UHGV virus genome: UHGV-1488451
DNA: 38,329 nt
Origin: a virus
Direction: 5' to 3' (one strand)
Under the pieces are notes generated by a model that was not told the origin of the DNA, ran no database searches, and worked only from the letters and a program-made list of their open reading frames with translations. This document shows, in pieces, positions 5,265 to 32,378 of the stretch; position 1 is the stretch's first letter; every line of letters starts with the position of its first letter. Both the position numbers and the translations under genes were made by a program.

Positions 5265-6743
5265 TTATTTTCCCTTCATGGTTTGGATTTGCTGTTGAAT
5301 GTTGGCGATGTCGCGCCGGGCGGCGGCGACACCATCCACGAGGGTGAGGTTTTCACCCTTCGAGTTCTGGCCCAACTGCGGCCAGGGGCCAAGCTGACCG
5401 CTGATGTATTCCACTTGTTGGATTAGTCGGTCAAGCTTTTTGTTGGTTTCCTGCGCCGCGACTTTGGCGTCGTTCAGCGCGGCGACTTGCTCATGTCCGA
5501 ATAGGGACACTGGTCCTCCTTTGATTTGGATGTTTGGGTTTGCGGGTGCGGTCGAGTAGGCGTAGCCCTTCGGCAGTATCAGCGAGGCCAGCTGGTCAAG
5601 GCTGATCCAGTAGCCGTATGGGCTGAACCATGAATCCGCTATCCACACGGCACGCCCCTGGTCACCGTCTCGATATCCCATTGCGGCAATGTAGTGGTAC
5701 ACCACGCCCCCGCCATAGGCTGGGGAGACGGAGCCGTACACGCCGCGCGGGTAGTTCGACGGTGGAGCAACGATGTTGCAGATGACACCATGACCAGCTT
5801 TGACTGAGGTTTTGATGTCGTTCCACAGGCGTTCCTGCTGGTCCGCCGTTGGTGGGTCATTAGGCATCTCTACTGACTGGTATTCAGCCCCTGGGATGTG
5901 TTTGTTCAGCACCTTCGGGAAGAACCCAATCCAGTCTGTGCCGTTGACTGTGGTGCCCAGCTCCACAGCGAAATCGCCTTCCGGCTTGAGAACACCGGTG
6001 GCGGCGAACACCACAGTCTGGGTGGATGCGGGCCCGCAATTGTAGTAGGTGTCCTGTACCACGGCCTCACGGCTGTAGGGGATTTCTACTTCTTCACCAG
6101 CCTGGTTGACCAGGGTTTCACCCGCGCCGCCGCCGGTTGAACCTTCAGGAAGCAGTGACTCCCCCAAGGTCAGGCAGAAGTCGAAGCGGCGTTGCCGGTC
6201 GTCGATTCCGTTGGTTCCTCCATTGATCGCGCGGGTTGCGGCTTTGAATCCTTCGTACCGCTGCCAGCCCTCTAGGTTCGGGTCTGCTGCCTGGTCAGCA
6301 AATTCATTGAGCAGTGGCCGAGCCACCACCCAGTACCAAGCAGCAGCCATGAATCCCCACTTCGGGGTGGCCACCAAATCCGGGTCATTCACAAACAGGT
6401 TCGGGTCGCTGGTGATTCCACGATCATGGCACCATCGACCGAACGACCCGTAGTTGTTCCGTCCCGTGAGCTGTATGGGGCCGCGACCATGGAAACGTGC
6501 ACCATCACCAGGGTAGACGTTGCCGAGATCGCCACGGCCCTCATAGTTGCTGGTGAAGTAGTCATACCCGCCAAGTTCCTGCATGAATTGCAGGCCCACG
6601 GACTCATGTCCGATCTGCGCGCACCACATTGCTGCGCGCGCCACGGTCGTGATGTCCGCGAACTTCATGGCTTCATTCATGGGTTGCACAAACGCCGAAT
6701 CGACGTTGGAACCCATTGCTCGGTTAAGTGTTCCTAGGTCCAT
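5265..6743 (-). CDS. Multidomain endolysin: N-terminal GH19 (chitinase-like) muramidase plus papain/C39-like cysteine peptidase plus C-terminal tail
   Basis: GH19 motifs are QIGHESVGL and FHGRGPIQLTGRNNY. The peptidase motifs are YYNCGPAS and a later YHYIAAMGY His region. ATG 6743 follows aaaggag; the track GTG at 6749 is too close to the SD. Confidence 0.88.
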   Translation of the reverse strand: MDLGTLNRAMGSNVDSAFVQPMNEAMKFADITTVARAAMWCAQIGHESVGLQFMQELGGYDYFTSNYEGRGDLGNVYPGDGARFHGRGPIQLTGRNNYGSFGRWCHDRGITSDPNLFVNDPDLVATPKWGFMAAAWYWVVARPLLNEFADQAADPNLEGWQRYEGFKAATRAINGGTNGIDDRQRRFDFCLTLGESLLPEGSTGGGAGETLVNQAGEEVEIPYSREAVVQDTYYNCGPASTQTVVFAATGVLKPEGDFAVELGTTVNGTDWIGFFPKVLNKHIPGAEYQSVEMPNDPPTADQQERLWNDIKTSVKAGHGVICNIVAPPSNYPRGVYGSVSPAYGGGVVYHYIAAMGYRDGDQGRAVWIADSWFSPYGYWISLDQLASLILPKGYAYSTAPANPNIQIKGGPVSLFGHEQVAALNDAKVAAQETNKKLDRLIQQVEYISGQLGPWPQLGQNSKGENLTLVDGVAAARRDIANIQQQIQTMKGK

Positions 6744-6772
6744 ATTCACTCCTTTCGCTGTTGTTTGTGCTC

Positions 6773-9760
6773 CTACCCGTATTCGATGGGGAGGATGTAG
6801 TTTCCTTCACGACGCACCCATGCGATGGTTTCGCGCAGTACATCGGGGTCCGGTGCGTTGTCCCACGGGTTGTTCCATTCGGATTCACTACCCAGCTCAC
6901 CGGTGAATGTGTCAGTGGTGAGCCAGATTTGCCCAACGTTCGATACGCTGGCACGCTTGAGTACTTGTTTGGCCTGCTCAACATCGTTTACGTTGTGTAC
7001 CGCGTGCCAGAACCTCAGCGGGTTATGCCCTCTGTAGTGCCCAGGACAAATAGTCTCGTCGTCAATGTAGCGTTGCGCGGATTGTTCGAAAGCCATGAGC
7101 GTATCCGCCGCACCCAGCATGCCCTCAACAGTGTTGCCGCCCGGGTTCGCTGTGATGTAGAAGGCGCTTCCGTACTTTTTGCGGAGTTCCTGGTACAGCG
7201 TTACATAGCCTTGCACTTTGTTTGCCTGGTCGCCCCAGCCATTGACAGCCTCATCAAGGAACACACCGTGAATACGGTGACGCCCGTACCAGTCTATGAA
7301 CTGGTCGATCTCCTTGATGATCTCGGAGTGGCTGCGACCGCCCCACTGGGTGAGCACGTAGGCGATGTTGACCATGCCGAGCGCCGCAGTGGTGGTTAGC
7401 GTCAACTCGTAGTCGTTCTCTTTCTTCGTGCCCACACCACTATGAGGGTTGGCGATGAACGGCCCTGCGATCTGCGGATTGTGAAGGTAGTTGGCGGTGA
7501 CGTCGCGCGCGTGCTCAACCGCCTCCCAATATTTAGGCCAAGAATAGGTGACCGGCGCAAGCCTGCGTGCCCCACGCGTCCACAACTGGAATGGGTGAAT
7601 ATGCAAACCAGGGGTAGGCCCCTCGCGGGTTTCCAACGCTTTCAACAAAGGCGAAGCCTCACTAGCCGCCGGAGCAGGCGCGGGCGCGGGAGGAAGTTTC
7701 TTCAACCGCTCATCAACAACCTCACCAGCCAAAACCCGAACACGCTCCTCATCAGGCTTATCAAGAAGCTTCTTCCACTCCTCAATCGTGATGATCATAT
7801 CCGGGCGCGCCGGGTTGAAATTCCCATTGAAGATGAAATCCTTCTTCACAGTGCCTTCCTGGGCGTTGTTACCAATGATGGTGTTGCCGCCAACCTGCTC
7901 CTTCTTCGTTCCCTTGCGCAACACAATCTTCACCATGTGCGCGCAGTCAGCCTTGGGGTTGTCCTGCGCGTAGCTGTTGCCAATGACGGTGCAGCCGATG
8001 GGGTCTTCCAGTGCGACGGCCGCCCAGTCTTTAGGGCCGTCTGCGGGTGGGCGTAGTTGGTTTTCAAGGCCCACGTTCCAGATGTCGTTGCCTTGGATTT
8101 TTGTGCCGTGCCCGGAGCAGGCGATGCCGTGGTTCCAGGTTTCGCCGATGGTGTTGGCCATGACCACGCTGTACCCGCCCACGCTGATTCCGTTGTCCTT
8201 GGACACGGGGAGCATGTTGCCGGTGATGTTCGTGCGGTAGCACTTGATGGTGAAGCCGATAGGCTCGAAAGCGATTGACTGGTTCTCGGCCATGACCACA
8301 CTGTTCCCAGACACGAGGGTGTCTTTCGGTGCGCCCTGAATCAATGTCTCAGGCCGCAAAGCCGGGTCGGTAGTATCACGCCCACCAATGCCCATGCCGC
8401 AGGATGCGCGGCGAATCTGGTTGCCAATGATCTGGTTGCGGTTCGACTCGTCTTTGATCATGATGCCGAACCCGGATGCACCCTCCTGCGCCGTGTTCTG
8501 CTTCAAACCGCTACCATCAGTCCAGCAGTTCAGAACCAGGGAATCGTTCGTTCCGTTGCCGGTTGGCTTCTCTTTCCGCACAAACCCCTGCAAAAGGAAC
8601 GCATTTGCGCCGGAGTTCATGACCCCGATCTGAACCATCTTCACGTAATCAGCGTTCGTGATCTGCAGCGCCGTGGCAGGCCGCTCACCCGTCACCCAGT
8701 CCATGTCGATAACAAACCCGGACATGTAGCCGCGCCGCAGATTGCCGCCACTGGTTGACTGCATGGCGTTCTTCCCGACGCCGCGTTTCATCTTCAACAC
8801 CGTGGCGTCACCCTGCCCCATCATGACCTTGCCGGAAAGCTTGTCGAGGTTAATCGTGTTCGACAACCCCCACTCACCAGCAGGCAACTGGATTACCTTC
8901 TTCGACGCGTCGTTAATGGCTGCCTGCAAAGCAGTGGTGATGTCAGTGCCCTCGGCTGGTTTGACGTTGATGACACCAGCATCACCTGCGGCTGTGACGA
9001 TTTCCTTGATCTGGGTTTCCACCAGCTTCGTAACAGCCTTGTTGACTTCCTCGGAGATCTTGTTTCCAACTGCCTGCTGGATAGCCTCAGGTGTGGGGGC
9101 CGCGCCACCGCCGCCTTGCGGGTGTTGCCGGAAGTATTCTTCCACGGCCTTGCCGATTTTCTCCGGGTCAACGCCTTCGCCTGCGGGGAGCTTCCCGATT
9201 TGCCTAGTGATCTCGTCACGCACCAGGCCGCTGAGGTCGTTCATTGCCTGCTGCACAGCGTCCTGGGAGGCTGCGCTTGCGGCTTGTTTCGCCTGGTTGA
9301 CGGCTTCGCGTGCTTCGTCTCGTGCGGCGATGGTGTCTTTCTTCACCTGCTCAACCGTGCTTGCCGCCTGCTGTGCTTGGGTGACGGCTTCTTCGGCTTT
9401 GCGTTTGCTTTCCGACGCGGCGGTGGCTGCCTGCTGCGCTTCACCCACGACAGCGGGCGGGTACTCTGTTTGCGCGCCGATCAGGTTGGCTAGGTTCGCC
9501 TCACCTGATTCAGGCAGTGTCACAGTCCACGAGGTTCCATGCACAGTGCCGCCTTCAAGCGTCACTGTGACAGGCCCGGGGAACATGTCAGGGCTGCGGA
9601 AAACCCCACCGGTGCCTTCCATGTGGATTCGCCGCAGTTCCCGCGTGACCACCGTTCCACCCTCGACACGTTCACCCGATGACTGCAGCACCACATAGCA
9701 GTCAGGGCCGTCAAAAGGTTGCTTGGTGATGCTCTTCAAATCACCAGTCAAAATAGTCAT
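6773..9760 (-). CDS. Tail fibre/spike with coiled coil, pectate-lyase-like beta-helix and C-terminal spherulin-4 (GH135-like) domain
   Basis: The central region (VIQLPAGEWGLSNTINL...MGQGDATVLKM... with repeated G-N-x-I/V turns) resembles a right-handed beta-helix. The C-terminal part (FIANPHSGVG...VNIAYVLTQWGGRS...IDWYGRHRIHGVFLDE) fits the Spherulation-specific family 4 pattern. Start ATG 9760 follows taggaaggtgcta; the track ATG at 9781 abuts a terminator T-run and lacks an SD. Confidence 0.8.
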   Translation of the reverse strand: MTILTGDLKSITKQPFDGPDCYVVLQSSGERVEGGTVVTRELRRIHMEGTGGVFRSPDMFPGPVTVTLEGGTVHGTSWTVTLPESGEANLANLIGAQTEYPPAVVGEAQQAATAASESKRKAEEAVTQAQQAASTVEQVKKDTIAARDEAREAVNQAKQAASAASQDAVQQAMNDLSGLVRDEITRQIGKLPAGEGVDPEKIGKAVEEYFRQHPQGGGGAAPTPEAIQQAVGNKISEEVNKAVTKLVETQIKEIVTAAGDAGVINVKPAEGTDITTALQAAINDASKKVIQLPAGEWGLSNTINLDKLSGKVMMGQGDATVLKMKRGVGKNAMQSTSGGNLRRGYMSGFVIDMDWVTGERPATALQITNADYVKMVQIGVMNSGANAFLLQGFVRKEKPTGNGTNDSLVLNCWTDGSGLKQNTAQEGASGFGIMIKDESNRNQIIGNQIRRASCGMGIGGRDTTDPALRPETLIQGAPKDTLVSGNSVVMAENQSIAFEPIGFTIKCYRTNITGNMLPVSKDNGISVGGYSVVMANTIGETWNHGIACSGHGTKIQGNDIWNVGLENQLRPPADGPKDWAAVALEDPIGCTVIGNSYAQDNPKADCAHMVKIVLRKGTKKEQVGGNTIIGNNAQEGTVKKDFIFNGNFNPARPDMIITIEEWKKLLDKPDEERVRVLAGEVVDERLKKLPPAPAPAPAASEASPLLKALETREGPTPGLHIHPFQLWTRGARRLAPVTYSWPKYWEAVEHARDVTANYLHNPQIAGPFIANPHSGVGTKKENDYELTLTTTAALGMVNIAYVLTQWGGRSHSEIIKEIDQFIDWYGRHRIHGVFLDEAVNGWGDQANKVQGYVTLYQELRKKYGSAFYITANPGGNTVEGMLGAADTLMAFEQSAQRYIDDETICPGHYRGHNPLRFWHAVHNVNDVEQAKQVLKRASVSNVGQIWLTTDTFTGELGSESEWNNPWDNAPDPDVLRETIAWVRREGNYILPIEYG

Positions 9761-9781
9761 TAGCACCTTCCTAAAGCGCAT

Positions 9782-9816
9782 AAAAACAAGGCACCCAACT
9801 TGATTAGTGAGTGCCT
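9782..9816 (-). terminator. Hairpin plus T-run between the minor tail genes and the fibre gene
   Basis: The minus strand reads aggcac-(16 nt)-gtgcct tgttttta. The stems are at 9789-9794 and 9811-9816. Confidence 0.55.
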
Positions 9817-13560: not shown

Positions 13561-16500
13561 CTATGTGAGAACAGTGGGCGCGCCACCAACATGACGCTCA
13601 CCCTTGATCTTTTTCAGGTCTTTGGTGTTCACCTCGACCTTGCCCTCCACAGCCTCCACACGCTGCCGCAGGACTTCCTCACCATCCACGTTCACCACCA
13701 GGGTTAGCTGACCACCATCGCCCTTATCGGCGATTTGTTTCAGCACACCCCACTGGTCGTTAGTGAGAATCGCTTCCGGCTTGCCGGACAGGTTCACCGC
13801 CGCACCCTCATGAGGCAGCACACCGCCCTGGTCATACAGGCGTGTACCACCACGGGCACGCTGACCAGCCCAACCAGCGAGGTTCACCAACCCGTGTGCC
13901 GCGTCGATGTCCTCCATCAGGCTAGCCAAACCACCAAACCCATCATCACCACCATTAAAAGCGGCACCGAGTTCACCCCACGCGGCACCAGCATCAGCGG
14001 CCTTGTTGACAAGGAACTTGGCGCGCTCCTCACCAACAACACCAGCTGTTGCGCCGTACCCGTAGTCGCCACCGTTGAAGGCGGTCGTGAACTCCTCGGC
14101 CACGTTCGCGGCCAGGCTGTTGCGCACCATGCGGCCGAAATTACCGGTGGCGTTCACCAGTGTTTTCGCGTGCGTGTCGCCGATCAGCTGGCCGAGCCCG
14201 CCGAAGCCGTCATCACCGCCGTGGAACGCTGTTGTGAGTTCTTCACGTGCAGCATCCACGGGGTTGATCTGCGGCCCTGTTGGGTTAATGTCCTGCGGGT
14301 TTTCCGGTTTTGCGTCGGCAACTGCGGCTGCGGCACCATCAACCCCGGAAGCAGCGGTGTTAGAATCGCCTGCCTGTTTGGCCTGCTCTTCTTCCTTCTT
14401 CTTCTGGTCGCGGGTGAACCAATCCGGTACAGGCGCAAGCTTGTCCGGTGGGGTTGTGGCCAGCTTCTTGATCAGGCCGTTTCCGCCGCCGATGAACTCG
14501 AAGAACGCGTCTTGTGCAAGTGCGTCCGGGGACTTGTTGCCAAGGGTTTTCCAGAACACTTCGTTGGCGATGCCAGCGCCGTAGGCCCCGGCGTCTTGCC
14601 AGCGTTTTACTTCGTTCTGGGCGTTGACGATTCCTTGGTGTGCGGCTAGTGCCGCGACTACTGCGGGGTGGTCTTCTTCGAGGTGGGTTGCGTCTGCGCC
14701 GAGGTATTCGCCGGTGTTGATGACGTGCATGAGTGCGTCTGCGGCTTGTTTCCAGGCTGCGGGGCCTTTGTTGCCGAGTTCGACGAGGGCTGGGATTGCG
14801 TTTCGGAGGTCTCCGAAGTTGCGTTCCAGCATGTCCCACTGTTCAGCGGTTAGGACAGCCTCTGGCTTTCCTGTGTGGTTCCAGTAGGTGCCGAACCCTC
14901 CTGGGGTGGGTTTGAGCCAGCCGCCGGAATCGTAGCCATGTCCATGACCCCACATTGTGGTCAAATCAGTGCCGTACCTGCTCTTGTAGTAGCGGAGCGC
15001 GGCGTTCATATTGGCCCACGGGTCACGCCTATCGTTCGGCAATTCGGGGTCACGGTTGGCTGCGAATGTGCCGGGGATGATCTGCAGCAAGCCAACGCCC
15101 GCACTGTCGCCAGTTCCGTTGACGTCGACAATCTGCTGTGCAATACCCGGGTTGCCACCAGACTCAGACTGAATCTGGGCCAGCATGGCGTTGACCTGCG
15201 CCGGGTCATCAGCATTAAAGCCTTGACGACGCATCGCGGCCATTGCCATTTCGCGCCACGACTCGGCATTACCAGCCACACCAGCGGCACCGGAGAAGGT
15301 GCCCACCTTCGACTTGATAAAGTCCCAAGCCTTGTCAGCGAGGGTTTTAGCGATAGCTCCGGGGAGCTTGCCGAAGTCGCCGTGCTGCTCCTTGCCTGGG
15401 AAGTCGCCGATCTTATTGATCGCCGCGTCCCACAGGCCCTTGACCATTGCTCCGAGGTTGAAGCCGCCACCGCCACCAGCGCCACCTGAAATGAACTCCC
15501 CAAGGAACTCCTTCAAAGTGTAGGTGTGGTTGAACAGGCTGTTATCGGAGCCACGTGCCGCACCGCCGATCTGCACGCCGTGATCGCCCGCCGATTCCAA
15601 GTTAACCCCGTCGATAGTGCCCGCCATGTGGCCGTTCTCGCCGCCGCCTTTGCCGGACAGCACGCCAATGGTCACGCGGCCAGACAAGCCGGGGACGAAC
15701 CCGAAGTTACCAAAGTTACTTTCGGTGTTGAAGATACGTCCTGCGCGCAGCGAACCGCCGTTCAGGAACTGCGTAATGCCTGACCACAGGCCCGAGCAAT
15801 CCCAGCTGGGGTTGCCGGTGCCCCCATACTGATAGGGCTTGCCGTGCTCAGATTTGAGTTCATTGAACAAGGCCGCAATGCGCTCAGTCAGGTGATCGCG
15901 CTGATCAGTGCCGCCATTAGGGAACACGCCGCCCTTAGCGAACGCAAGGGCACGGTACACGCCGCCGCGCGCGAACGCGGCACCCTCACCCAGCATCTTC
16001 TTGACGCGGCTCACGCCACCACCAATGGCGGCTTTGTTCAGCGCATCAACAGCAGGCTTACCGCCCATAGCCTTAGTGACCTCTGGGCGCATGATCGCCT
16101 CACCGCCGGACAAGCCAAGCAGCCCGCCAGTGGGGCTGTAGAAATGGTGAATATCCTTACCAGGACTGTAACCAGGCAGGACACCACCGGTTGCGAAATG
16201 ATGCTCTGGGAGTTCACCAAGGCCAACCAGCTTGGCCACCGTGTTCCAGGCTTTCCTGATGCCACCGTTGTAGACCGTGTTGACCACGAACTCAACAGGT
16301 TTTTTCGTCTTGTCCTTGATGCCGTCCCAGATGCGGCCGATATTATCGACGGTCTGACTGAACCAGTCTTTGACTTTCGTCAACCCGTCTTTCAGCCCGT
16401 TGAACACCGGGTGCACCACATTATCAGCAACCCAGCGTATGCCGTTGCCGAGGGCTTCCCACGTTGGTTTGATGTAGCCGTTCCAGATGCTGGAGAAGAA

Positions 16501-19500
16501 GTCCCCCAACGCCTGCAAACCGGCCTGCATCAGGTTCCACGTTGGTGTAACAACCGTGTCGAACACCCACTTGATGCCAGCGCCAAGACCGTTCCACACA
16601 GCCTTGATGAACTCGACCATCGGGTTAAACACATTGTTGGCCAGCCATGTGATTCCCGCGATCATTAAATCCCAGGTGGGTTTGATGATCGTGTCCCACG
16701 CGAATCGAATGGCAAGGCTCAGGCCGTCCCACTCGAATTTGATGAAACCGAAAATCGGCATGAGGACGTTGTTCCACATGAAGTTTGCCGCGCCTTGCAG
16801 CAAATCCCACGCGGGTTTAATCACGTTGTCCCAACCAGCTTTGATGCCCCATGACAGGGCTTCCCAGGCCAGCAGCAGCGGTGTCAGCACGATCGTTCCG
16901 ATCAGCGCCAGGCCAAACTTCGCCGCGTACTCCAACGCGTCCCACGCCGGTTTGATCAGCGTGTTCCACGCCCAGGCGATGCCAGCGGAAATAGCATTCC
17001 ACGTGTCACCCAGGAACTGGATACCAACACGCACAGCATCAGCCAAGTAGTTGCCCACCCATTGGATGACCACACCAACCACACTGATTAGCGGGTTGAA
17101 ACCATTGGTGATAATCCACGACAAAATGTTCGTGGCCTGCGACAAAATCCACGCTAATCCCTCAACGGCTTTCACCGCCCCAAGGATTGCGCCCACCACC
17201 ACGCCACCAACAATGATACCGATGGTTTGCAGCACCGGCATCAGCACCGGTTCAAGCAGGTTCCACAGCTGCACAAGCAGATTCCACAAGCCTTGCAGCG
17301 CACCCCACACAGCACCCGTGATCGTCTGGCCAAGACTATTCAAAGTCGTGGCCAAGGTCGTGACAGTGTTCCACAGGCTCGTGAAAGTGCCACTCAGCGA
17401 ATCCACAATTATGCCGCGAATCCACTCCATTGCATTACCGACGGTGGTGAAAGCATCAGCAATCATCTGCGCTTTGTCCGCGCCGAAAAGGGCGGTCAGC
17501 CCGCCGATGCCAGCATCATCGCCCTGGAACGCGGCGAACAGCTCACCAATGGATGCCTTCACATTCTGGAACGCAACGCCCATGCGCTCAGCAAAATCAA
17601 CAATCGCCTGGGCTTTATCAGCCCCGAAGATCGCCATGAGGCCACCAAACCCGGCGTCGCCGCCGTTGAAAGCCTCAGTGATTTCACCCCACGCGGCTTT
17701 CAGGTTGCTGAACAGAGTGAACACCGGCTGTAGGGCTTGCCCCATGAAGCTGGTGAACTCGCCCCAAATCCGCTTGCCCGTCTCGGTCTTCGTGAAGAAC
17801 AAGACCAGGGCACCAACAACGGCGGCTATGCCAGCGACAATCAAGCCTATGGGGTTGATCAGCATGGCTGTGTTCAAGCCCATTTGTGCGGCCGTGGCCT
17901 GCAAAGTGCCCGCGCGCTGCGCCGCAAGCAGGGCAGGCAAAACTTTCATCTGCGCTGCAAACGAACTAATCGCAGACACCGCAAACAAACCAGCCTGCGC
18001 CGCCCGCAAAGCAGCCATGCCAGCAACAACACCACCAACAGCGCCGCCAATAACAACCAGCAAATCCTTATTGCGGCCCAGCCACTCAGCCACAGCAGGA
18101 AGCTGATTAGTCAACGCGCCAATGGAGTTCCCCAGACGATCACCCCACGCCGAAAGCGTAGGCTCAGCCAAGGCGTACAGCTGCAGCTGCAAATCATCAA
18201 TCGCGTTTCCGATACGGTCCATCACACCATTCAGGCCAGCGAGCTTAGCCCCCGCAGTTTCACCAGCGGAGCCTTGCCGGTCGAGAGAAGCACGCAGCTT
18301 ATCAAACCCCTCGACACCACTGTTCGCCGCAGTAGTCGCAAACGATACAGCCTCACGCCCAAACGCGGTTGCAGCAGCGGCGGTAAACGCACTCTCACCC
18401 ATGCGGTCCTGCGCGGCCGCCAGCTGCGCGGTGATTTCCCGCATACCCACGAACTTGCCTTGCGCATCGAACGCATTGACACCCATCTCAGCAAGCGCCT
18501 TAGCGCCTTCTTTTGACGGGTTAGTAAGCGACAGCAACGCCGAACGCATCGCCGTACCAGCCTCGGAACCCTTGATGCCAAGGTTGGCGAACAAGCCAAG
18601 ATACGTACTCGCATCCTGCAAAGACACACCCAGAGTGGAGGCAATAGGTGCCGTGTACTTGATGGAGTCGCCTAGCTCAGTCAAGCCTGTAGCACTGTTA
18701 TTAGCGGTGTTAGTCAACACGTCAGCAACAAGTGACGCATCCTTAGCCGCCAGGTGGAAACCATTCAACGCCGCGATCTGAATATCAGCAGCAGTGCCAG
18801 CATCAACCTGAGCAGCACCCGCAAGCTGAATGGAACCCTTTGCCGCGTCCATAGCATCAGACACCGACAAACCACCCTTAGCCAACGCCAGCATCGCATC
18901 AGTAGCAGATGCGGCACTAGTGCCAGCCAGGGTTTCATCGTTGCCAAGGTCGCGGGCACGCTGCGACACCATCTTCATAGTGTCCCCAGTCGAACCCGTC
19001 ACAGCCTGCAACGACCCCATCACCTGCGACAGCTCACGGCCTTTACCAATGGCATCACCAAAAAACGCGGCACCACCAGCAACACCAAGACCACCAGCAA
19101 TAACCCCACCAAGACGACCAACCGTCCCCACAAGGGAACTAATCTTCCCGCCCACACTATCCACATCACCAGAAAGGCTCAGCGCCCAAGCCTTCGACTT
19201 CTCAGCCGCGCCAGTGAACGTGAAACCAGTCTTCTTAACCTGGTCCCCAACATGCCCAGCAGCCTCAGCAGCCTTACGCTGCGACGCTGCGGCGTCCTCC
19301 ATTGTGGCCTTGTACAGTTTCTCCTTGGCGCTCACCTGGTCGTTGGCGTTCGCTAAATCAACCTTAGCTTTCTTAAGCTCCCCCTCCGACTTCACCAAAG
19401 CAAGTGACGCACGGTCAGACTGGCGTTTAGCAGTCTCTAGCTCACGCTCCGCGCGCTGAACCTCCTTCGAGTCAGCGTCATTAGCGTTACGCGCGTCCTG

Positions 19501-20076
19501 AAGTTTCTTCTCCGCAGCCGCGACTTTCTCATTAGCTGCGGCGACTTTATCCCGCTGCTCCCCCACAGCAAGATCAGCGGCCTTTACCTTCCCCGATGCC
19601 TCAGCTGCGGCAATACGAGCCTTCCCAAGGTTATCCTCAGTACGTGCCACCTGAGCCGCGGTTGCGACGCCGCCCTCACGAATAGCCTTAAGGTCAGTCT
19701 CACCACGTGCGACCTGGGCGGTAGCCTGATCAAGCTTGGCTTTGGCCACTGCCGCATCAGACTCCGCGCGCGCCACCTGCGACGCCGTGGCCGTGCTGCT
19801 GTTACGCGCCTGCTGCAGTCGCTCCTCAGCCACCGCAACATCCTGCGCCGCCTGCGCCTCAGCCTTACGGGCCGCAGCAACCACGCGGGTTTGCTTCTCG
19901 ACGCCCTCAGCCAGCGCGGCACCGGCGTTCTGGCCGGACTTCTCAAAGCTCTTCTCGATCAGGGCGCCAGCATCATCAGCAGCCTTCGACGCGCCCTTCA
20001 CCACCTCAGCGGCGAAACCACGCATCGAAGCATTAACCGGAACCCACACAGTAGACGCCACCGCGCCACACTCCAA
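13561..20076 (-). CDS. Tape measure protein with embedded NlpC/P60 peptidase and SLT lytic transglycosylase domains
   Basis: 2171 aa with coiled-coil Ala/Lys-rich N-terminal and TM-rich regions and W-x repeats (IKPAWD/IKPTWD). The NlpC/P60 motifs GKPYQYGGTGNPSWDCSGLW...GHMAG lie at about nt 15520-15870. The SLT motifs QSESGGNP...GVGLLQIIPGTF lie at about nt 14950-15200. There are also five AFNGGDDGFGGL-type repeats. The start may be GTG 20061. Confidence 0.93.
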   Translation of the reverse strand: MECGAVASTVWVPVNASMRGFAAEVVKGASKAADDAGALIEKSFEKSGQNAGAALAEGVEKQTRVVAAARKAEAQAAQDVAVAEERLQQARNSSTATASQVARAESDAAVAKAKLDQATAQVARGETDLKAIREGGVATAAQVARTEDNLGKARIAAAEASGKVKAADLAVGEQRDKVAAANEKVAAAEKKLQDARNANDADSKEVQRAERELETAKRQSDRASLALVKSEGELKKAKVDLANANDQVSAKEKLYKATMEDAAASQRKAAEAAGHVGDQVKKTGFTFTGAAEKSKAWALSLSGDVDSVGGKISSLVGTVGRLGGVIAGGLGVAGGAAFFGDAIGKGRELSQVMGSLQAVTGSTGDTMKMVSQRARDLGNDETLAGTSAASATDAMLALAKGGLSVSDAMDAAKGSIQLAGAAQVDAGTAADIQIAALNGFHLAAKDASLVADVLTNTANNSATGLTELGDSIKYTAPIASTLGVSLQDASTYLGLFANLGIKGSEAGTAMRSALLSLTNPSKEGAKALAEMGVNAFDAQGKFVGMREITAQLAAAQDRMGESAFTAAAATAFGREAVSFATTAANSGVEGFDKLRASLDRQGSAGETAGAKLAGLNGVMDRIGNAIDDLQLQLYALAEPTLSAWGDRLGNSIGALTNQLPAVAEWLGRNKDLLVVIGGAVGGVVAGMAALRAAQAGLFAVSAISSFAAQMKVLPALLAAQRAGTLQATAAQMGLNTAMLINPIGLIVAGIAAVVGALVLFFTKTETGKRIWGEFTSFMGQALQPVFTLFSNLKAAWGEITEAFNGGDAGFGGLMAIFGADKAQAIVDFAERMGVAFQNVKASIGELFAAFQGDDAGIGGLTALFGADKAQMIADAFTTVGNAMEWIRGIIVDSLSGTFTSLWNTVTTLATTLNSLGQTITGAVWGALQGLWNLLVQLWNLLEPVLMPVLQTIGIIVGGVVVGAILGAVKAVEGLAWILSQATNILSWIITNGFNPLISVVGVVIQWVGNYLADAVRVGIQFLGDTWNAISAGIAWAWNTLIKPAWDALEYAAKFGLALIGTIVLTPLLLAWEALSWGIKAGWDNVIKPAWDLLQGAANFMWNNVLMPIFGFIKFEWDGLSLAIRFAWDTIIKPTWDLMIAGITWLANNVFNPMVEFIKAVWNGLGAGIKWVFDTVVTPTWNLMQAGLQALGDFFSSIWNGYIKPTWEALGNGIRWVADNVVHPVFNGLKDGLTKVKDWFSQTVDNIGRIWDGIKDKTKKPVEFVVNTVYNGGIRKAWNTVAKLVGLGELPEHHFATGGVLPGYSPGKDIHHFYSPTGGLLGLSGGEAIMRPEVTKAMGGKPAVDALNKAAIGGGVSRVKKMLGEGAAFARGGVYRALAFAKGGVFPNGGTDQRDHLTERIAALFNELKSEHGKPYQYGGTGNPSWDCSGLWSGITQFLNGGSLRAGRIFNTESNFGNFGFVPGLSGRVTIGVLSGKGGGENGHMAGTIDGVNLESAGDHGVQIGGAARGSDNSLFNHTYTLKEFLGEFISGGAGGGGGFNLGAMVKGLWDAAINKIGDFPGKEQHGDFGKLPGAIAKTLADKAWDFIKSKVGTFSGAAGVAGNAESWREMAMAAMRRQGFNADDPAQVNAMLAQIQSESGGNPGIAQQIVDVNGTGDSAGVGLLQIIPGTFAANRDPELPNDRRDPWANMNAALRYYKSRYGTDLTTMWGHGHGYDSGGWLKPTPGGFGTYWNHTGKPEAVLTAEQWDMLERNFGDLRNAIPALVELGNKGPAAWKQAADALMHVINTGEYLGADATHLEEDHPAVVAALAAHQGIVNAQNEVKRWQDAGAYGAGIANEVFWKTLGNKSPDALAQDAFFEFIGGGNGLIKKLATTPPDKLAPVPDWFTRDQKKKEEEQAKQAGDSNTAASGVDGAAAAVADAKPENPQDINPTGPQINPVDAAREELTTAFHGGDDGFGGLGQLIGDTHAKTLVNATGNFGRMVRNSLAANVAEEFTTAFNGGDYGYGATAGVVGEERAKFLVNKAADAGAAWGELGAAFNGGDDGFGGLASLMEDIDAAHGLVNLAGWAGQRARGGTRLYDQGGVLPHEGAAVNLSGKPEAILTNDQWGVLKQIADKGDGGQLTLVVNVDGEEVLRQRVEAVEGKVEVNTKDLKKIKGERHVGGAPTVLT

Positions 20077-28943: not shown

Positions 28944-29232
28944 CGGCCGCCTTCATACGCTCCATCACCGAAACAACCGCCACAGGGCGGTCACGGTCCT
29001 CAGGAATTCCCCGCGCCTCCGGCGTGCACCCCAACGCCCCCAACGCCTTCAACAAATGAGGCCCCAAATACAACGCCTTTGTGCGGTCATACCCAGCATC
29101 AACAGGCACGAAATCAATCTGCCGAGCATACGACAGCGCCAGCTCCTGCAATGCCTTATCTGCACCGGTGACGTTCTCGCCACGCGCCTCAATTGAATCA
29201 AGTACAGCCTGTTCAAGCGGCCCAACAGTCAT
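28924..29232 (-). CDS. terS: Terminase small subunit (position-based)
   Basis: 102 aa from ATG 29232 (SD ggaaggag). It overlaps the terL start by 20 nt. The track start at 29319 lacks an SD. Confidence 0.7.
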   Translation of the reverse strand: MTVGPLEQAVLDSIEARGENVTGADKALQELALSYARQIDFVPVDAGYDRTKALYLGPHLLKALGALGCTPEARGIPEDRDRPVAVVSVMERMKAAGGGRAG

Positions 29233-29364
29233 GATTAAAGCTCCTTCCAGAAACCAGGTCTTGCGCGCGCGATACCCCCAAAAACGAGTGGGGGGAGAGG
29301 ACAGGCCCACCCGGCTCAAATGTCCTGGTCAGGTGTGCTGGTGATTTGCTACCCCCTACCGTTG

Positions 29365-29649
29365 TTACCAGGTTTGGCTGGGTTGTCCGAGGGTTGGTTG
29401 GGGTGGTTGGTTGTGGCGTGCGCGGTTGCAGTTGGTGTGTGTTGGTTTGATGTTGTTGGGGTCGTTTTCGAGGTGTGGGTGTGTGCTTGTGGGGTGGATG
29501 TGGTCGAGGTCGCATGCGTTTGGGGTGTGTGGTGGTGCGGTGTAGTCGATTGGTTGGCCGCAGAGGTAGCAGGGGGTGTTGTTTTCTGCGTGTTGTTGGC
29601 GGAGTTGTTGGCGGAGTTTTTTGTTTGCGCGGGTTTCTTTGAATGGCAT
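29365..29649 (-). CDS. HNH endonuclease (terminase-associated type)
   Basis: 94 aa with CYLCGQPI...DLDHIHP...NIKPTHTNCN. It lies adjacent to the terminase genes, as in cos-type HK97-like phages. Confidence 0.88.
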   Translation of the reverse strand: MPFKETRANKKLRQQLRQQHAENNTPCYLCGQPIDYTAPPHTPNACDLDHIHPTSTHPHLENDPNNIKPTHTNCNRARHNQPPQPTLGQPSQTW

Positions 29650-29669
29650 GGGGTTTTGGGGGTTGATAT

Positions 29670-29700
29670 GGGTAAACCCCCATGCTTTTTGGCATGGGGG
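29670..29700 (-). terminator. Rho-independent terminator separating the early/middle genes from the HNH-terminase late block
   Basis: The minus strand reads cccccatgc-caaaaa-gcatggggg followed by tttaccc. The stem is 9 bp. Confidence 0.7.
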
Positions 29701-29740
29701 TTGTCTGCGACTGAGTTTAGCAGTGTGGTTGCCCGTTTTG

Positions 29741-30310
29741 TCAATGTGACAGTTTTTTATCTATGTCTGTTTGTGAGTATTTGAGTGTGCCGTCGAGGCT
29801 GTGGTGTGCTCTGATGTGTCCTCGTGCTCTCCAGTGGTGGATTTGTTTGCGGGTGATGTTGTGGCCTTGTTGCCATGCGTGGTCGATGGCTTGTTGGATG
29901 GTGAGCCATTGGCCGTGGGGGTTGATGGGTGGTTCGCGGTGGTGGCGTTGGGTGAGGTCTTGTTCGATGGTGCGTAGTCCTTGTTCGATGGTGTCGGGTT
30001 CGGGGTGGTGGTTGATGAGGTGGGTGTTGTGGCTGAGCCAGGTGCACCAGCGTGAGAGTGGTTGGTTGGCTGCGCTGGCTGGGAGGTGGATGTTTGCGTG
30101 TTTGAGGATTTGGTGGATGATGTCGCGGAGTTCGTCTTCGGTGGTGATTTTGTTTTCGAGTTGGGTGAGGTTGAGGGGTGGGCGTGGTCCGGGGGTGGTG
30201 TGGCCTCCTTCTTTGGGGATGGTGGAGTCGATGTGTGTGGGGTGGAGGTCGGTTTCGAGTTCGTGGGTGAGGGTGGCGAGGTTGGTGAGGATTTTGTTGA
30301 TGGTGATCAT
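29741..30310 (-). CDS. Hypothetical protein with C-terminal MerR/excisionase-type HTH
   Basis: 189 aa. The C-terminus WLTIQQAIDHAWQQGHNITRKQIHHWRARGHI...YSQTDI fits HTH_17-like proteins. The composition is His/Thr/Pro-rich. Confidence 0.6.
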   Translation of the reverse strand: MITINKILTNLATLTHELETDLHPTHIDSTIPKEGGHTTPGPRPPLNLTQLENKITTEDELRDIIHQILKHANIHLPASAANQPLSRWCTWLSHNTHLINHHPEPDTIEQGLRTIEQDLTQRHHREPPINPHGQWLTIQQAIDHAWQQGHNITRKQIHHWRARGHIRAHHSLDGTLKYSQTDIDKKLSH

Positions 30311-30558
30311 GGTTTGGGTTCTTGGAGTTCTTTGGTGGCTTTGGTGGTGAGGATGATGGAGCCGTAGGTGTCGAAGGCTAGGTATCCGTGGTCGATGAGG
30401 ATGTTGGTCATGGTGTGGTTGATGCGTTTGCCGGAGGCGAAGCGTCGGAGGGCGTTGATGTGGTTGGGGGTCATTGGTTTGTGTCTTTCTTGGTGGTGAG
30501 GTGGGTGATTGTTCCGGGGTGGGTGAGGGTGCTTATGGCGGTGGTGATGATGATGCAC
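30307..30558 (-). CDS. Small hypothetical protein (start uncertain: 30558 or 30474)
   Basis: The 83-aa ORF has a first 28 aa (MHHHHHRHKHPHPP...) that may be untranslated leader. The ATG at 30474 gives a 55-aa product. Confidence 0.5.
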   Translation of the reverse strand: MHHHHHRHKHPHPPRNNHPPHHQERHKPMTPNHINALRRFASGKRINHTMTNILIDHGYLAFDTYGSIILTTKATKELQEPKP

Positions 30559-30574
30559 GCGATGATGGTGAGGG

Positions 30575-31108
30575 TCATTGTTCGTCTTTCTGGATTTCGT
30601 ATCGTTCTTCTTGGTGGTCGCGTTCGAGCCTGTCTGCGCGTTCCCAGTCTGGGAGGGTGTCGTCGTTGGTGTCGTCGTGGGGGTAGGGGTGTGCCATGTG
30701 GGTTTCTTTCTGGGTGAGGTGGATGTGTGCGCCGGGTGTTTCGCCGGGGTGTGCGTAGCGTTTGTGGGTTATCCAGGTTGTGATTTGGCTGTCGTCGTTG
30801 ATTGCTCCTGATTGGGTGAGGGCGTCGCCGAGGGCGCGTTGTAGTTTGTCGAGGTCGGGGGTTTTGGTGTGTGGTTCGGTTTTGTTTTTGAGGCGTTTGG
30901 GGCGGGGGAAGATGAAGATTGCGGTGATGGTGATTGGTCCTTGGATTGGGGGTTTGTGGTTGTGGGTGAGGGTTGCGGTTTGGGTGAGGGCTTTGCGCCA
31001 GGCGGGTAGGTGTTTGCTGGATTCGATACTGCGGCCGCCGCCGATGTAGCGTTTGGAGCCTTGGGGTCTGGGGGTGCCTGGGGTGAAGAATGTGAGCGTT
31101 TGGGTCAT
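30575..31108 (-). CDS. rusA: RusA-family Holliday junction resolvase
   Basis: 177 aa with FFTPGTPRPQGSKR...PDLDKLQRALGDALTQSGAINDDSQI, typical RusA motifs. Confidence 0.88.
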   Translation of the reverse strand: MTQTLTFFTPGTPRPQGSKRYIGGGRSIESSKHLPAWRKALTQTATLTHNHKPPIQGPITITAIFIFPRPKRLKNKTEPHTKTPDLDKLQRALGDALTQSGAINDDSQITTWITHKRYAHPGETPGAHIHLTQKETHMAHPYPHDDTNDDTLPDWERADRLERDHQEERYEIQKDEQ

Positions 31109-31238
31109 TGGAACATGCTTTCTATGTGGGGGTGGTGGTTTGTTTTGGGTTGGGGGTGGGTGTTATTTTCGCGCGTGAGGCTTGGGGCGGGTTGGTGGCG
31201 CCTGGTGGCCTGTTGGGCGGAGCGTGGTCACAACAGTC

Positions 31239-32378
31239 TCAAAACGGGGGTTTTGCGGCGTTGGAATTGCCGAACCATACACGACTACCCGCCGAGGGGT
31301 TTTCGGGCGTGTGAGGCGGCAATGAGGGCGGATTTGGGGCATTCTCGTTTCGTCTGGCCGCCCGGAGTTGAGCGTATTCCGGTGGGAGGTCCACCGGCTC
31401 GGGGGGTGTCCGATGGTCGCATTTGCGGGCTACGCTGCGGTTTTCCGGCGAATCCGGGTCGATTCCTCGGGTCGGGACCAGGACAAAACCCCGCTCGTCG
31501 CACCACGGGCAAGCGTCGATTTCGGCGCGTCGTGCCTGCTTGGCTTGGGTTTTCTGGTCCTGGAACCAGCGTCTGGCGGCTGCGCAGGCCCCGCAGGGTG
31601 GCACCTGGTCGCGTGGCAGCCCGGCGTGTTCGCGGCATCGGGGGTCATCCGGCGTGGACCAATCGGCGGGTGTGTCGCCGGTCACGGTTGGGGTGTTGGG
31701 GGGCGGCGCGTCAGCGGCCGCCGAACCCTGGTCGAAACTCGGGGCGGGGGCGTGTGCGCTTGCGCTCTCGCTCGGAAGATTTTCTCTCTTAAGCTCCCCT
31801 TTATTGGTATTGGTCGGGCGCAGGTCCGGGCGCGCGCGTCGCGCGCGAGGAGTGGACATGCGGGTGGCGTCCGGGGTGGACATTTCGGCGTTTTCGCTGG
31901 TAGAGGAAAAATCGCTCGACCTATTCGGATTCATTTCGTTTTCATTTCGATTTCGATTCGCGTTCGATTCGGATTCATTTCGATTTCGATTCGGATTCAT
32001 TTCGCGTTCGGATAGGTCGAGCCTCCCTGTTTCAGTATCGGCGTTGCAGCCCCTCCTGCGGGCCTTTGACTCGCGTTCAATACGGCGTCGATTCGAGCGT
32101 TGTTCGCGGGTCTGCTGATAGTCCCCCCAGTCCCTAAAAGTGAACACGATCACACCATTTTCATTGACTGATTGCGTCCACAACCCCGCATCAACAAGCG
32201 CCTGAATCTGAACCGCGCTCCCCCGCAAAGCCCGCACCTGCTGACGAGGAATCACCCCATCAGTCTCAAATTCAGCGCACCAACTCCCAGCCTTCGCCCA
32301 TAAACCCACCGCAGCATTAGGAAGGGAGGAAATCTTAGGATGCGCATGAAAACGGTCGTCAATCATGAACCAGCTCAT
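31239..32378 (-). CDS. Putative replication initiator / DNA-binding protein with internal iteron-encoding low-complexity linker and Cys-rich C-terminus
   Basis: About 379 aa from ATG 32378 (MSWFMIDDRFHAHPK...GLWAKAGSWCAE... wHTH-like N-terminus). The linker is NPNRNRNESESNANRNRNENEMNPNR, and the C-terminus carries CGAC...CPWC motifs. Confidence 0.65.
   Translation of the reverse strand: MSWFMIDDRFHAHPKISSLPNAAVGLWAKAGSWCAEFETDGVIPRQQVRALRGSAVQIQALVDAGLWTQSVNENGVIVFTFRDWGDYQQTREQRSNRRRIERESKARRRGCNADTETGRLDLSEREMNPNRNRNESESNANRNRNENEMNPNRSSDFSSTSENAEMSTPDATRMSTPRARRARPDLRPTNTNKGELKRENLPSESASAHAPAPSFDQGSAAADAPPPNTPTVTGDTPADWSTPDDPRCREHAGLPRDQVPPCGACAAARRWFQDQKTQAKQARRAEIDACPWCDERGFVLVPTRGIDPDSPENRSVARKCDHRTPPEPVDLPPEYAQLRAARRNENAPNPPSLPPHTPENPSAGSRVWFGNSNAAKPPF
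31923..32010. repeat. Iteron-like repeats with 22-bp phasing (candidate origin of replication inside the replication gene)
   Basis: The 16-mer attcggattcatttcg occurs at 31923, 31967 and 31989 (spacing 44 and 22 nt). Degenerate copies and two cgcgttcg motifs lie between them. Confidence 0.6.

Follow-up and report, generated by a model that had tools for sequence, protein, structure and literature searches.

Beta-helix tailspike depolymerases are textbook phage proteins, and beta-helices dominate among phage depolymerases. In the tailspikes of P22, Sf6, HK620 and Det7, in the K1 and K5 lyases and in the depolymerases of Klebsiella and Acinetobacter phages, a single catalytic domain lies inside the helix. 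TIM-barrel depolymerases are rare in phages and have hardly been studied: in the DepoScope survey, about 1% (10/984) of the polysaccharide-degrading folds from phages were TIM barrels, and the model of that survey excluded them (PMC11326577). Sph3 of Aspergillus, the enzyme with which glycoside hydrolase family GH135 has been characterised, is a membrane-anchored fungal protein from the biosynthetic cluster of an exopolysaccharide (EPS), galactosaminogalactan (GAG). It is a retaining endo-alpha-1,4-N-acetylgalactosaminidase (PMC9860509) with Asp-166 and Glu-167, together with Glu-222, as putative catalytic residues (PMC10485009), and its D166A variant is inactive (bioRxiv 10.1101/113696); we drew our list of catalytic residues from this review and this preprint. 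Here, we analysed UHGV virus genome UHGV-1488451, a stretch of viral DNA of 38,329 nucleotides that we refer to as the window, and focused on a predicted tail fibre gene on its minus strand. We found that the product of this gene joins a right-handed parallel beta-helix to a C-terminal Spherulin4/GH135-like domain with an intact Sph3-type triad, and that the same two domain families are fused in both orders in many uncultured phages. On balance, we lean towards the reading that the gene encodes the distal side fibre, or receptor-binding protein, of a temperate siphovirus, and that this fibre carries a two-module glycan-acting cassette.

The gene and its ribosome-binding site are located as follows.
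6773..9760, minus strand: tail fibre gene, 995 amino acids (aa), stop codon TAG at 6773-6775 (open reading frame list, start and Shine-Dalgarno check, homologue P0001 of the same length)
9766..9772, minus strand: Shine-Dalgarno sequence AGGAAGG, 5 nt upstream of ATG 9760

As listed, the open reading frame (ORF) spans 6773..9781 on the minus strand. Judging from the sequence, the true start is almost certainly ATG 9760, because AGGAAGG precedes it and because the metagenomic homologue P0001, which is 97% identical, is also 995 aa long. The ATG at 9781 lies inside the T-tail of an upstream hairpin and is not accompanied by a ribosome-binding site. The Shine-Dalgarno sequence and the length of P0001 bear out the coordinates 6773-9760 of the original prediction, and residues are numbered here on the 995-aa protein.

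The C-terminal part of the protein contains the following features.
6776..7603, minus strand: Spherulin4/GH135-like (beta/alpha)8 domain, aa 720-995 (C-terminal part about aa 700-995)
7250..7255, minus strand: codons of D836-E837 (GVFLDE), equivalents of Sph3 D166/E167 in alignments
7085..7087, minus strand: codon of E892 (MAFEQS), equivalent of Sph3 E222 in alignments

This domain matched PF12138 with an E-value of 6.8e-25 (88.4 bits, compared to a gathering score of 30.2), and a 40-sequence family profile matched Sph3 of Aspergillus clavatus (5c5g) with an E-value of 7.3e-29. The AlphaFold2 model of the domain reached a predicted local distance difference test score (pLDDT) of 89.6 and a predicted template modelling score (pTM) of 0.89. 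A Foldseek search with this model placed the Sph3 structures 5d6t/5c5g on top (E 5.5e-12, TM 0.70-0.72), with the next match seven orders of magnitude behind at 4e-5. The motifs NPHSGVG, AYVLTQWGGRS and GVFLDE were all present, and the Spherulation-specific family 4 domain that the original prediction had read from them was confirmed by the PF12138, Sph3 profile and Foldseek matches. Together, the sequence and model comparisons make a solid case that the C-terminal domain is a member of Spherulin4/GH135 with a (beta/alpha)8 fold. We also located the catalytic residues on which the predicted activity had been made to depend: D836, E837 and E892 correspond to the Sph3 triad, and the distance of 56 residues from D836 to E892 is identical to the Asp-Glu spacing in Sph3. 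Among non-redundant relatives, D836 was conserved in 150/150, E837 in 142/150 and E892 in 148/150 sequences, and all three residues were kept in 15/15 non-redundant viral sequences. The fibre gene has phage tail and lysis genes as its neighbours, and no genes of the uge3, gtb3, agd3 or ega3 type were found there that would mark an Sph3 orthologue. The domain is a member of the GH135 family and not an orthologue of Sph3.

Ahead of this domain lies the beta-helix.
7790..8974, minus strand: right-handed parallel beta-helix, aa 263-657
8264..8266, minus strand: codon of E499 (AFEPIGFT), invariant carboxylate
8195..8197, minus strand: codon of D522 (SKDNGIS), also invariant, located 23 residues beyond E499, a distance of about one coil

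A model of aa 255-690, built from a nine-sequence alignment (pLDDT 85.6, pTM 0.85), showed the right-handed parallel beta-helix of the pectate-lyase-like superfamily, so that the beta-helix of about 400 aa proposed originally is genuine. Against PF12708 the window protein scored 18.5-20.5 bits, below the threshold of 27; its homologues P0030 (29.9 bits) and P0019 (27.4 bits) exceeded the PF13229 cutoff of 25.9. The beta-helix family profile found no match among PDB sequences. Most of the top structural matches were glycan-active enzymes or phage depolymerases, and the second-best was PfbA, a non-enzymatic adhesin. Because these matches, at 10-18% identity, mix hydrolases, lyases, epimerases and one adhesin, we left the chemistry of the beta-helix unassigned. 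Neither a catalytic motif nor a core profile match was found for GH87, GH28, the polysaccharide lyases (PL) or AlgE-type epimerases. We rejected an identity as a GH87 alpha-1,3-glucanase, as the matches to PF22816 were sub-threshold and covered only profile positions 7-51, the N-terminal cap.

Within the family, E499 and D522 were invariant in 17 non-redundant members, down to 31% identity, and so were N523 and N543, which lie on the next rungs of the helix. From their spacing and the secondary structure, E499 and D522 would stack on neighbouring coils, and the four invariant residues suggest the pattern expected of a catalytic groove. The glycan-degrading role given to the beta-helix in the original prediction therefore stands in part: the invariant E499 and D522 suggest catalysis, but no enzyme family could be assigned and an adhesin ranks second among the structural matches.

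The two domains are separated by a linker, which was also correctly predicted.
7667..7690, minus strand: Pro-Ala linker PAPAPAPA, aa 691-698, recombination boundary

We determined the distribution of the domains in an exhaustive HMMER search of cluster representatives (E <= 0.001). This yielded 1,593 representatives, many of which are multidomain proteins of 500-1,500 aa. A GH135-like domain had been called uncommon on a virion, and this holds for cultured phages, where we found the domain in three (Rothia phage Spartoi gp21, S. thermophilus phage VA460 and Virus Rctr41k) across 50,697 records, each time annotated as a hypothetical protein. It does not hold for IMG/VR, in which at least 111 viral contigs carry the domain, as counted with two narrow peptide patterns alone. 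For the beta-helix family, cultured phages gave only a remote match, the tailspike of Bacillus phage Finn.

Next to the distribution of the single domains, we assessed their pairing in 85 ORFs, comprising 80 IMG/VR loci that were kept, 3 genome loci and 2 cultured phages. The beta-helix precedes the Spherulin4 domain in 24 of these and follows it in 21, and the remaining 40 are without this beta-helix. Several 50%-identity cluster representatives (P0019, P0024-26, P0029, P0030 and P0103) pair the domains as well, again in both orders. Stand-alone forms of each domain occur, including the beta-helix-only phage proteins P0018 and P0020. Viral Spherulin4 domains that are more distantly related are joined to other partners, such as collagen repeats, or to none that could be recognised, and the pairing is therefore clade-specific. 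The joint occurrence of this beta-helix family with this clade of Spherulin4 domains in the genomes of many uncultured phages, in both orders, is a new observation.

Compared to the homologues P0002-P0005, the beta-helix is 54-69% identical and the Spherulin4 domain 25-86%, and the two rankings are discordant. At the DNA level, similarity to the 52-kb phages L007/L018 begins at nt 7635, just downstream of the linker. By these alignments, the two domains recombine independently with a boundary at the linker, and the module swapping suggested by the original prediction is real. Since the pairing survives both permutation and recombination, its clade-specific recurrence would be best explained by functional cooperation rather than by two unrelated specificities, and it points to paired domains that most simply act on one glycan system. 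Two different host glycans, as originally proposed, are not favoured, because the same two families are fused in both orders across many phages.

The upstream half of the protein and the genes around it are listed below.
9476..9760, minus strand: N-terminal region, aa 1-95, presumed baseplate anchor (role taken from position)
8996..9475, minus strand: Ala/Gln/Glu-rich helical stalk, aa 96-255 (composition and heptad scan)
13561-20076, minus strand: tape measure protein (TMP) gene, ORF of 2,171 aa
11159-12757, minus strand: Tal gene with Sipho_Gp37 (E 2.6e-32)
5265-6749, minus strand: lysin gene, GH19 and C39-like, directly adjoining the fibre gene

The operon on the minus strand runs from the terminase and capsid genes through TMP, a Dit-like gene of 263 aa, Tal and two small genes to the fibre gene, which is the last structural gene and is followed by the lysin. 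Past the lysin, there are two small holin-like genes and then an integrase on the opposite strand; the phage is temperate. Relatives have an identical gene order around the fibre gene, and in Corynebacterium phage phi673 the equivalent slot carries a tail fibre annotation. This position after TMP, Dit and Tal and before the lysin supports the tail-fibre gene of the original prediction. The N-terminal aa 1-95 are common only to P0001 and are absent from P0002-P0005, and we found no family match for them. We infer from the gene position that they form a phage-specific baseplate anchor. The predicted tail-attachment region is consistent with this position and with weak PHROG tail-fibre matches that overlap aa 58-172, but has no homologue among cultured phages. 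The stalk consists of 19% A, 11% Q and 11% E, and heptad-compatible 28-residue windows begin at aa 103-139, thus spanning about aa 103-166, which agrees with the Ala/Gln-rich coiled coil read earlier from the translation.

As for the host, the best Tal matches came from Corynebacterium phages (40-44% identity), and phages of Mycobacteriales accounted for almost all 1,128 matches. The closest genome-encoded homologue of the Spherulin4 domain, at 43% identity, belongs to a prophage of Corynebacterium sp. TAE3-ERU16. A 97% relative carries a lysin with an Rv3766_C domain, and L033, a viral contig of 44% guanine-cytosine (GC) content with the Spherulin4-first order, encodes a lysin combining M23, GH25 and DUF4185 (L033:1760-4075), whose best matches are Gordonia lysin A proteins. 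The DUF4185 domain family was identified among enzymes that degrade D-arabinan (PMC10115798), and the L033 lysin would therefore hold a predicted arabinogalactan-cutting domain. Because of the Tal matches, the prophage homologue and the Rv3766_C and DUF4185 lysins, the host is most likely a Corynebacterium-type, mycolic-acid actinobacterium, as judged by homology. We rejected a streptococcal origin for the low-GC (42-44%) phages with the Spherulin4-first order, given the Gordonia-like architecture of the L033 lysin. A pattern scan of genome contigs, based on a seven-sequence alignment, returned only three loci, in a Streptococcus oralis metagenome-assembled genome (MAG), a Cardiobacteriaceae MAG and Rothia amarae, and was not decisive for the host; the S. 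oralis label is probably a binning artefact.

The prophage homologue itself (P0016; L012:10001-10975, JAHUTN010000001.1) is a stand-alone protein of 324 aa. Its gene directly follows the major capsid gene and precedes those for the head-tail connector, which is an unusual location for a glycosidase; the protein could be a head decoration or a moron.

On the reading that we lean towards, the phage-specific N-terminus would dock the protein on the baseplate, and the Ala/Gln-rich coiled-coil stalk, presumably trimeric, would project the tailspike-like beta-helix. The beta-helix would bind a surface glycan and probably also cleave it. The flexible Pro-Ala linker would tether the GH135-like (beta/alpha)8 glycosidase, which by homology to Sph3 may be a retaining endo-alpha-glycosidase acting on an alpha-1,4-linked polymer of the N-acetylgalactosamine (GalNAc) type or a related one. 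Both modules could then form one cooperating cassette on the outer glycan layer of the host, through which they would open the way for the tail tip. A polymer of the GalNAc type is a sensible candidate to consider first, because Sph3 cuts alpha-1,4-GalNAc and disperses the Pel-like polymer of Streptococcus intermedius, although specificity may differ at 16% identity. More tentatively, the cassette might be a dedicated two-enzyme tool of phages of Corynebacterium-type bacteria (mycolata), directed against one outer-envelope or matrix glycan, with sequential or synergistic activities. Candidate glycans would then be an alpha-1,4-linked GalNAc/Pel-like polymer or an alpha-glucan/arabinomannan outer layer; many of these phages seemingly come from human-associated samples.

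Several points weigh against a baseplate-borne, two-enzyme fibre. Trimerisation is an assumption, and the putative E499/D522 active site is deduced from spacing only. The characterised GH135 enzymes that we found are exclusively fungal and about 16% identical to this domain, so that the substrate could differ. Moreover, related genes elsewhere follow the capsid gene or the tail-tube gene or form part of the lysis cassette, so that virion attachment at the baseplate cannot be taken for granted across the family.

In an alternative reading, the GH135-like domain alone is catalytic and the beta-helix serves for receptor binding or as a trimer scaffold, as in PfbA or in inactive tailspikes. We consider this rather doubtful: although PfbA ranks so high, the top structural matches are mostly glycan-active enzymes or phage depolymerases, E499 and D522 remain invariant one coil apart together with N523 and N543, and beta-helix-only versions exist as separate phage proteins. 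If both domains are catalytic, they might still be two independent depolymerases against two glycans or two hosts, joined by chance recombination, as the original prediction had it. Their folds are unrelated, a flexible linker lies between them, they recombine independently and each is also found alone. However, both families are fused, in either order, in 45/85 loci and also in several representatives of 50%-identity clusters; if unrelated specificities had been joined by chance, such recurrence would not be expected, and the pairing is clade-specific. We therefore regard this reading as unlikely.

In a further alternative, the protein is not part of the virion but an auxiliary 'sporulation' gene product or a factor that acts from within, at lysis, to help release. 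Viral 'spherulation-specific family 4' proteins, which average 1,265 aa, have been termed sporulation genes (PMC8269230), the VA460 homologue is encoded between holin and lysin in its S. thermophilus phage, and the window gene directly abuts the lysin. Yet a coiled-coil stalk and a tailspike-type beta-helix are fused to the domain here, the gene occupies the tail-fibre slot after Tal, and Sph3, the one characterised member that we found described for the family, acts outside the cell as a glycoside hydrolase and does not regulate sporulation. A non-virion role is thus very improbable, and the two-module glycan-acting side fibre is the reading we retain.

We also observed that the place of the cassette varies among other phages. 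P0005, a full-length homologue of 39% identity, is encoded on a myovirus-like contig of about 112 kb with a sheath gene (L001:10001-12643). Its gene adjoins a ribonucleotide reductase gene outside any obvious baseplate cluster, and the cassette thus crosses phage morphotypes. In three further contigs (L096:8001-10250, L041:5461-7995 and L097:8001-9536), a reverse-order or beta-helix-only gene lies between the tail-tube gene and the tail chaperone and TMP genes instead of at the end of the tail module, a placement that suggests attachment elsewhere than at the baseplate tip.

Upstream of the fibre gene, we found a hairpin that the original prediction had taken as the gene's own terminator and as consistent with a swapped module.
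9782..9816, minus strand: terminator-like hairpin at 9789-9816 with T-run TGTTTTT at 9782-9788, in the gap between the fibre gene and the 241-aa gene upstream of it (sequence and fold)

The hairpin and its T-run are real, with a centroid fold of -14.1 kcal/mol at 9789-9816. A terminator consensus scan did not pick it up, and the fold of the whole region around it was no better than that of shuffled sequences (z -1.2). It is kept in L005 and L015-L017, phages of about 94% identity; in relatives further away, the intergenic hairpin is a different one or is missing. We rejected it as a sign of module swapping, since it is kept only in these close phages and the mosaic boundaries are intragenic, at the Pro-Ala linker and the N-terminal anchor.

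Elsewhere in the window, the TMP length of 2,171 aa implies an unusually long tail, and short DNA stretches match the tape measure genes of Gordonia and Rhodococcus phages. At positions 29000-32000, the GC skew is strongly positive (up to +0.57) and the AT skew negative, opposite to the structural module, which probably reflects a switch to plus-strand early genes. The 5' part of the lysin gene (5509-6740) is replaced by an M23 peptidase and GH25 cassette in L005 and L016, which are 92-94% identical on either side; Rv3766_C is recorded for L005, and the version with GH19 and a C39-like peptidase is common to the window and L015. Lysin catalytic domains are therefore swapped right beside the fibre gene. 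When the fibre gene and 25 kb of the window were compared by megablast with the 50,697 phage records, no useful match and no close cultured relative turned up.

When compared to known systems, the C-terminal domain is closest to Aspergillus Sph3 (GH135; PDB 5C5G/5D6T), with which it shares PF12138, the (beta/alpha)8 fold, the equivalents of D166/E167/E222 at identical spacing and the motifs NP.SG.G, YV.T, G.F.DE, NPG and D....FE. It differs in that it is the C-terminal module of a predicted tail fibre, fused to a beta-helix, in an actinobacterial phage. Other hydrolases of alpha-1,4-GalNAc polymers that act on Pel and GAG biofilms, such as the PelA hydrolase domain (GH166), are functional analogues and, in contrast to the phage domain, are cellular and associated with biosynthesis. 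Sph3 and PelA disrupt the GalNAc-rich, Pel-like aggregates of Streptococcus intermedius (PMC12345266), and such substrates therefore exist on Gram-positive commensals. The Spherulin4 domains of Spartoi gp21, VA460 (AUN43448) and Rctr41k are 27-33% identical to that of the window, but belong to proteins of 362-429 aa that are without the beta-helix. The Spartoi gene lies between the minor tail genes and the lysin, and the VA460 gene in the lysis region. The product of the latter (vB_SthS_VA460, a dairy phage; L014:6866-8155) may not be a fibre but an enzyme that acts at the lysis stage or degrades EPS.

The spherulation-specific family (SSF) proteins of Atacama soil viruses are likewise large (about 1,265 aa) and carry PF12138, but were read as sporulation-related auxiliary genes (PMC8269230). 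Given the stalk, the beta-helix and the intact triad within a tail module, we argue that such viral genes encode receptor-binding or depolymerase proteins, which would correct the misleading annotations as 'sporulation' auxiliary genes or hypothetical proteins. In literature searches that combined GH135, Spherulin4 or Sph3 with phage, we came across no paper on tail proteins of this kind. The Spherulin4 and beta-helix fusion defines a widespread predicted receptor-destroying module in uncultured phages, an entry point to the surface glycans that stand in the way of phages infecting Corynebacterium-type bacteria and a source of candidate enzymes for dispersing GalNAc-type (Pel/GAG-like) biofilms. 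If the two-enzyme cassette proves true, viruses would gain their first GH135-type depolymerase, the reach of GH135 would go past fungal GAG, and there would be a direct way to approach receptors that, for these phages, are largely unknown. In conclusion, the beta-helix depolymerases compared here keep their catalysis within the helix, whereas the window protein adds an unrelated glycosidase fold after a linker, and a second, GH135-type putative catalytic domain on a beta-helix fibre is not textbook.

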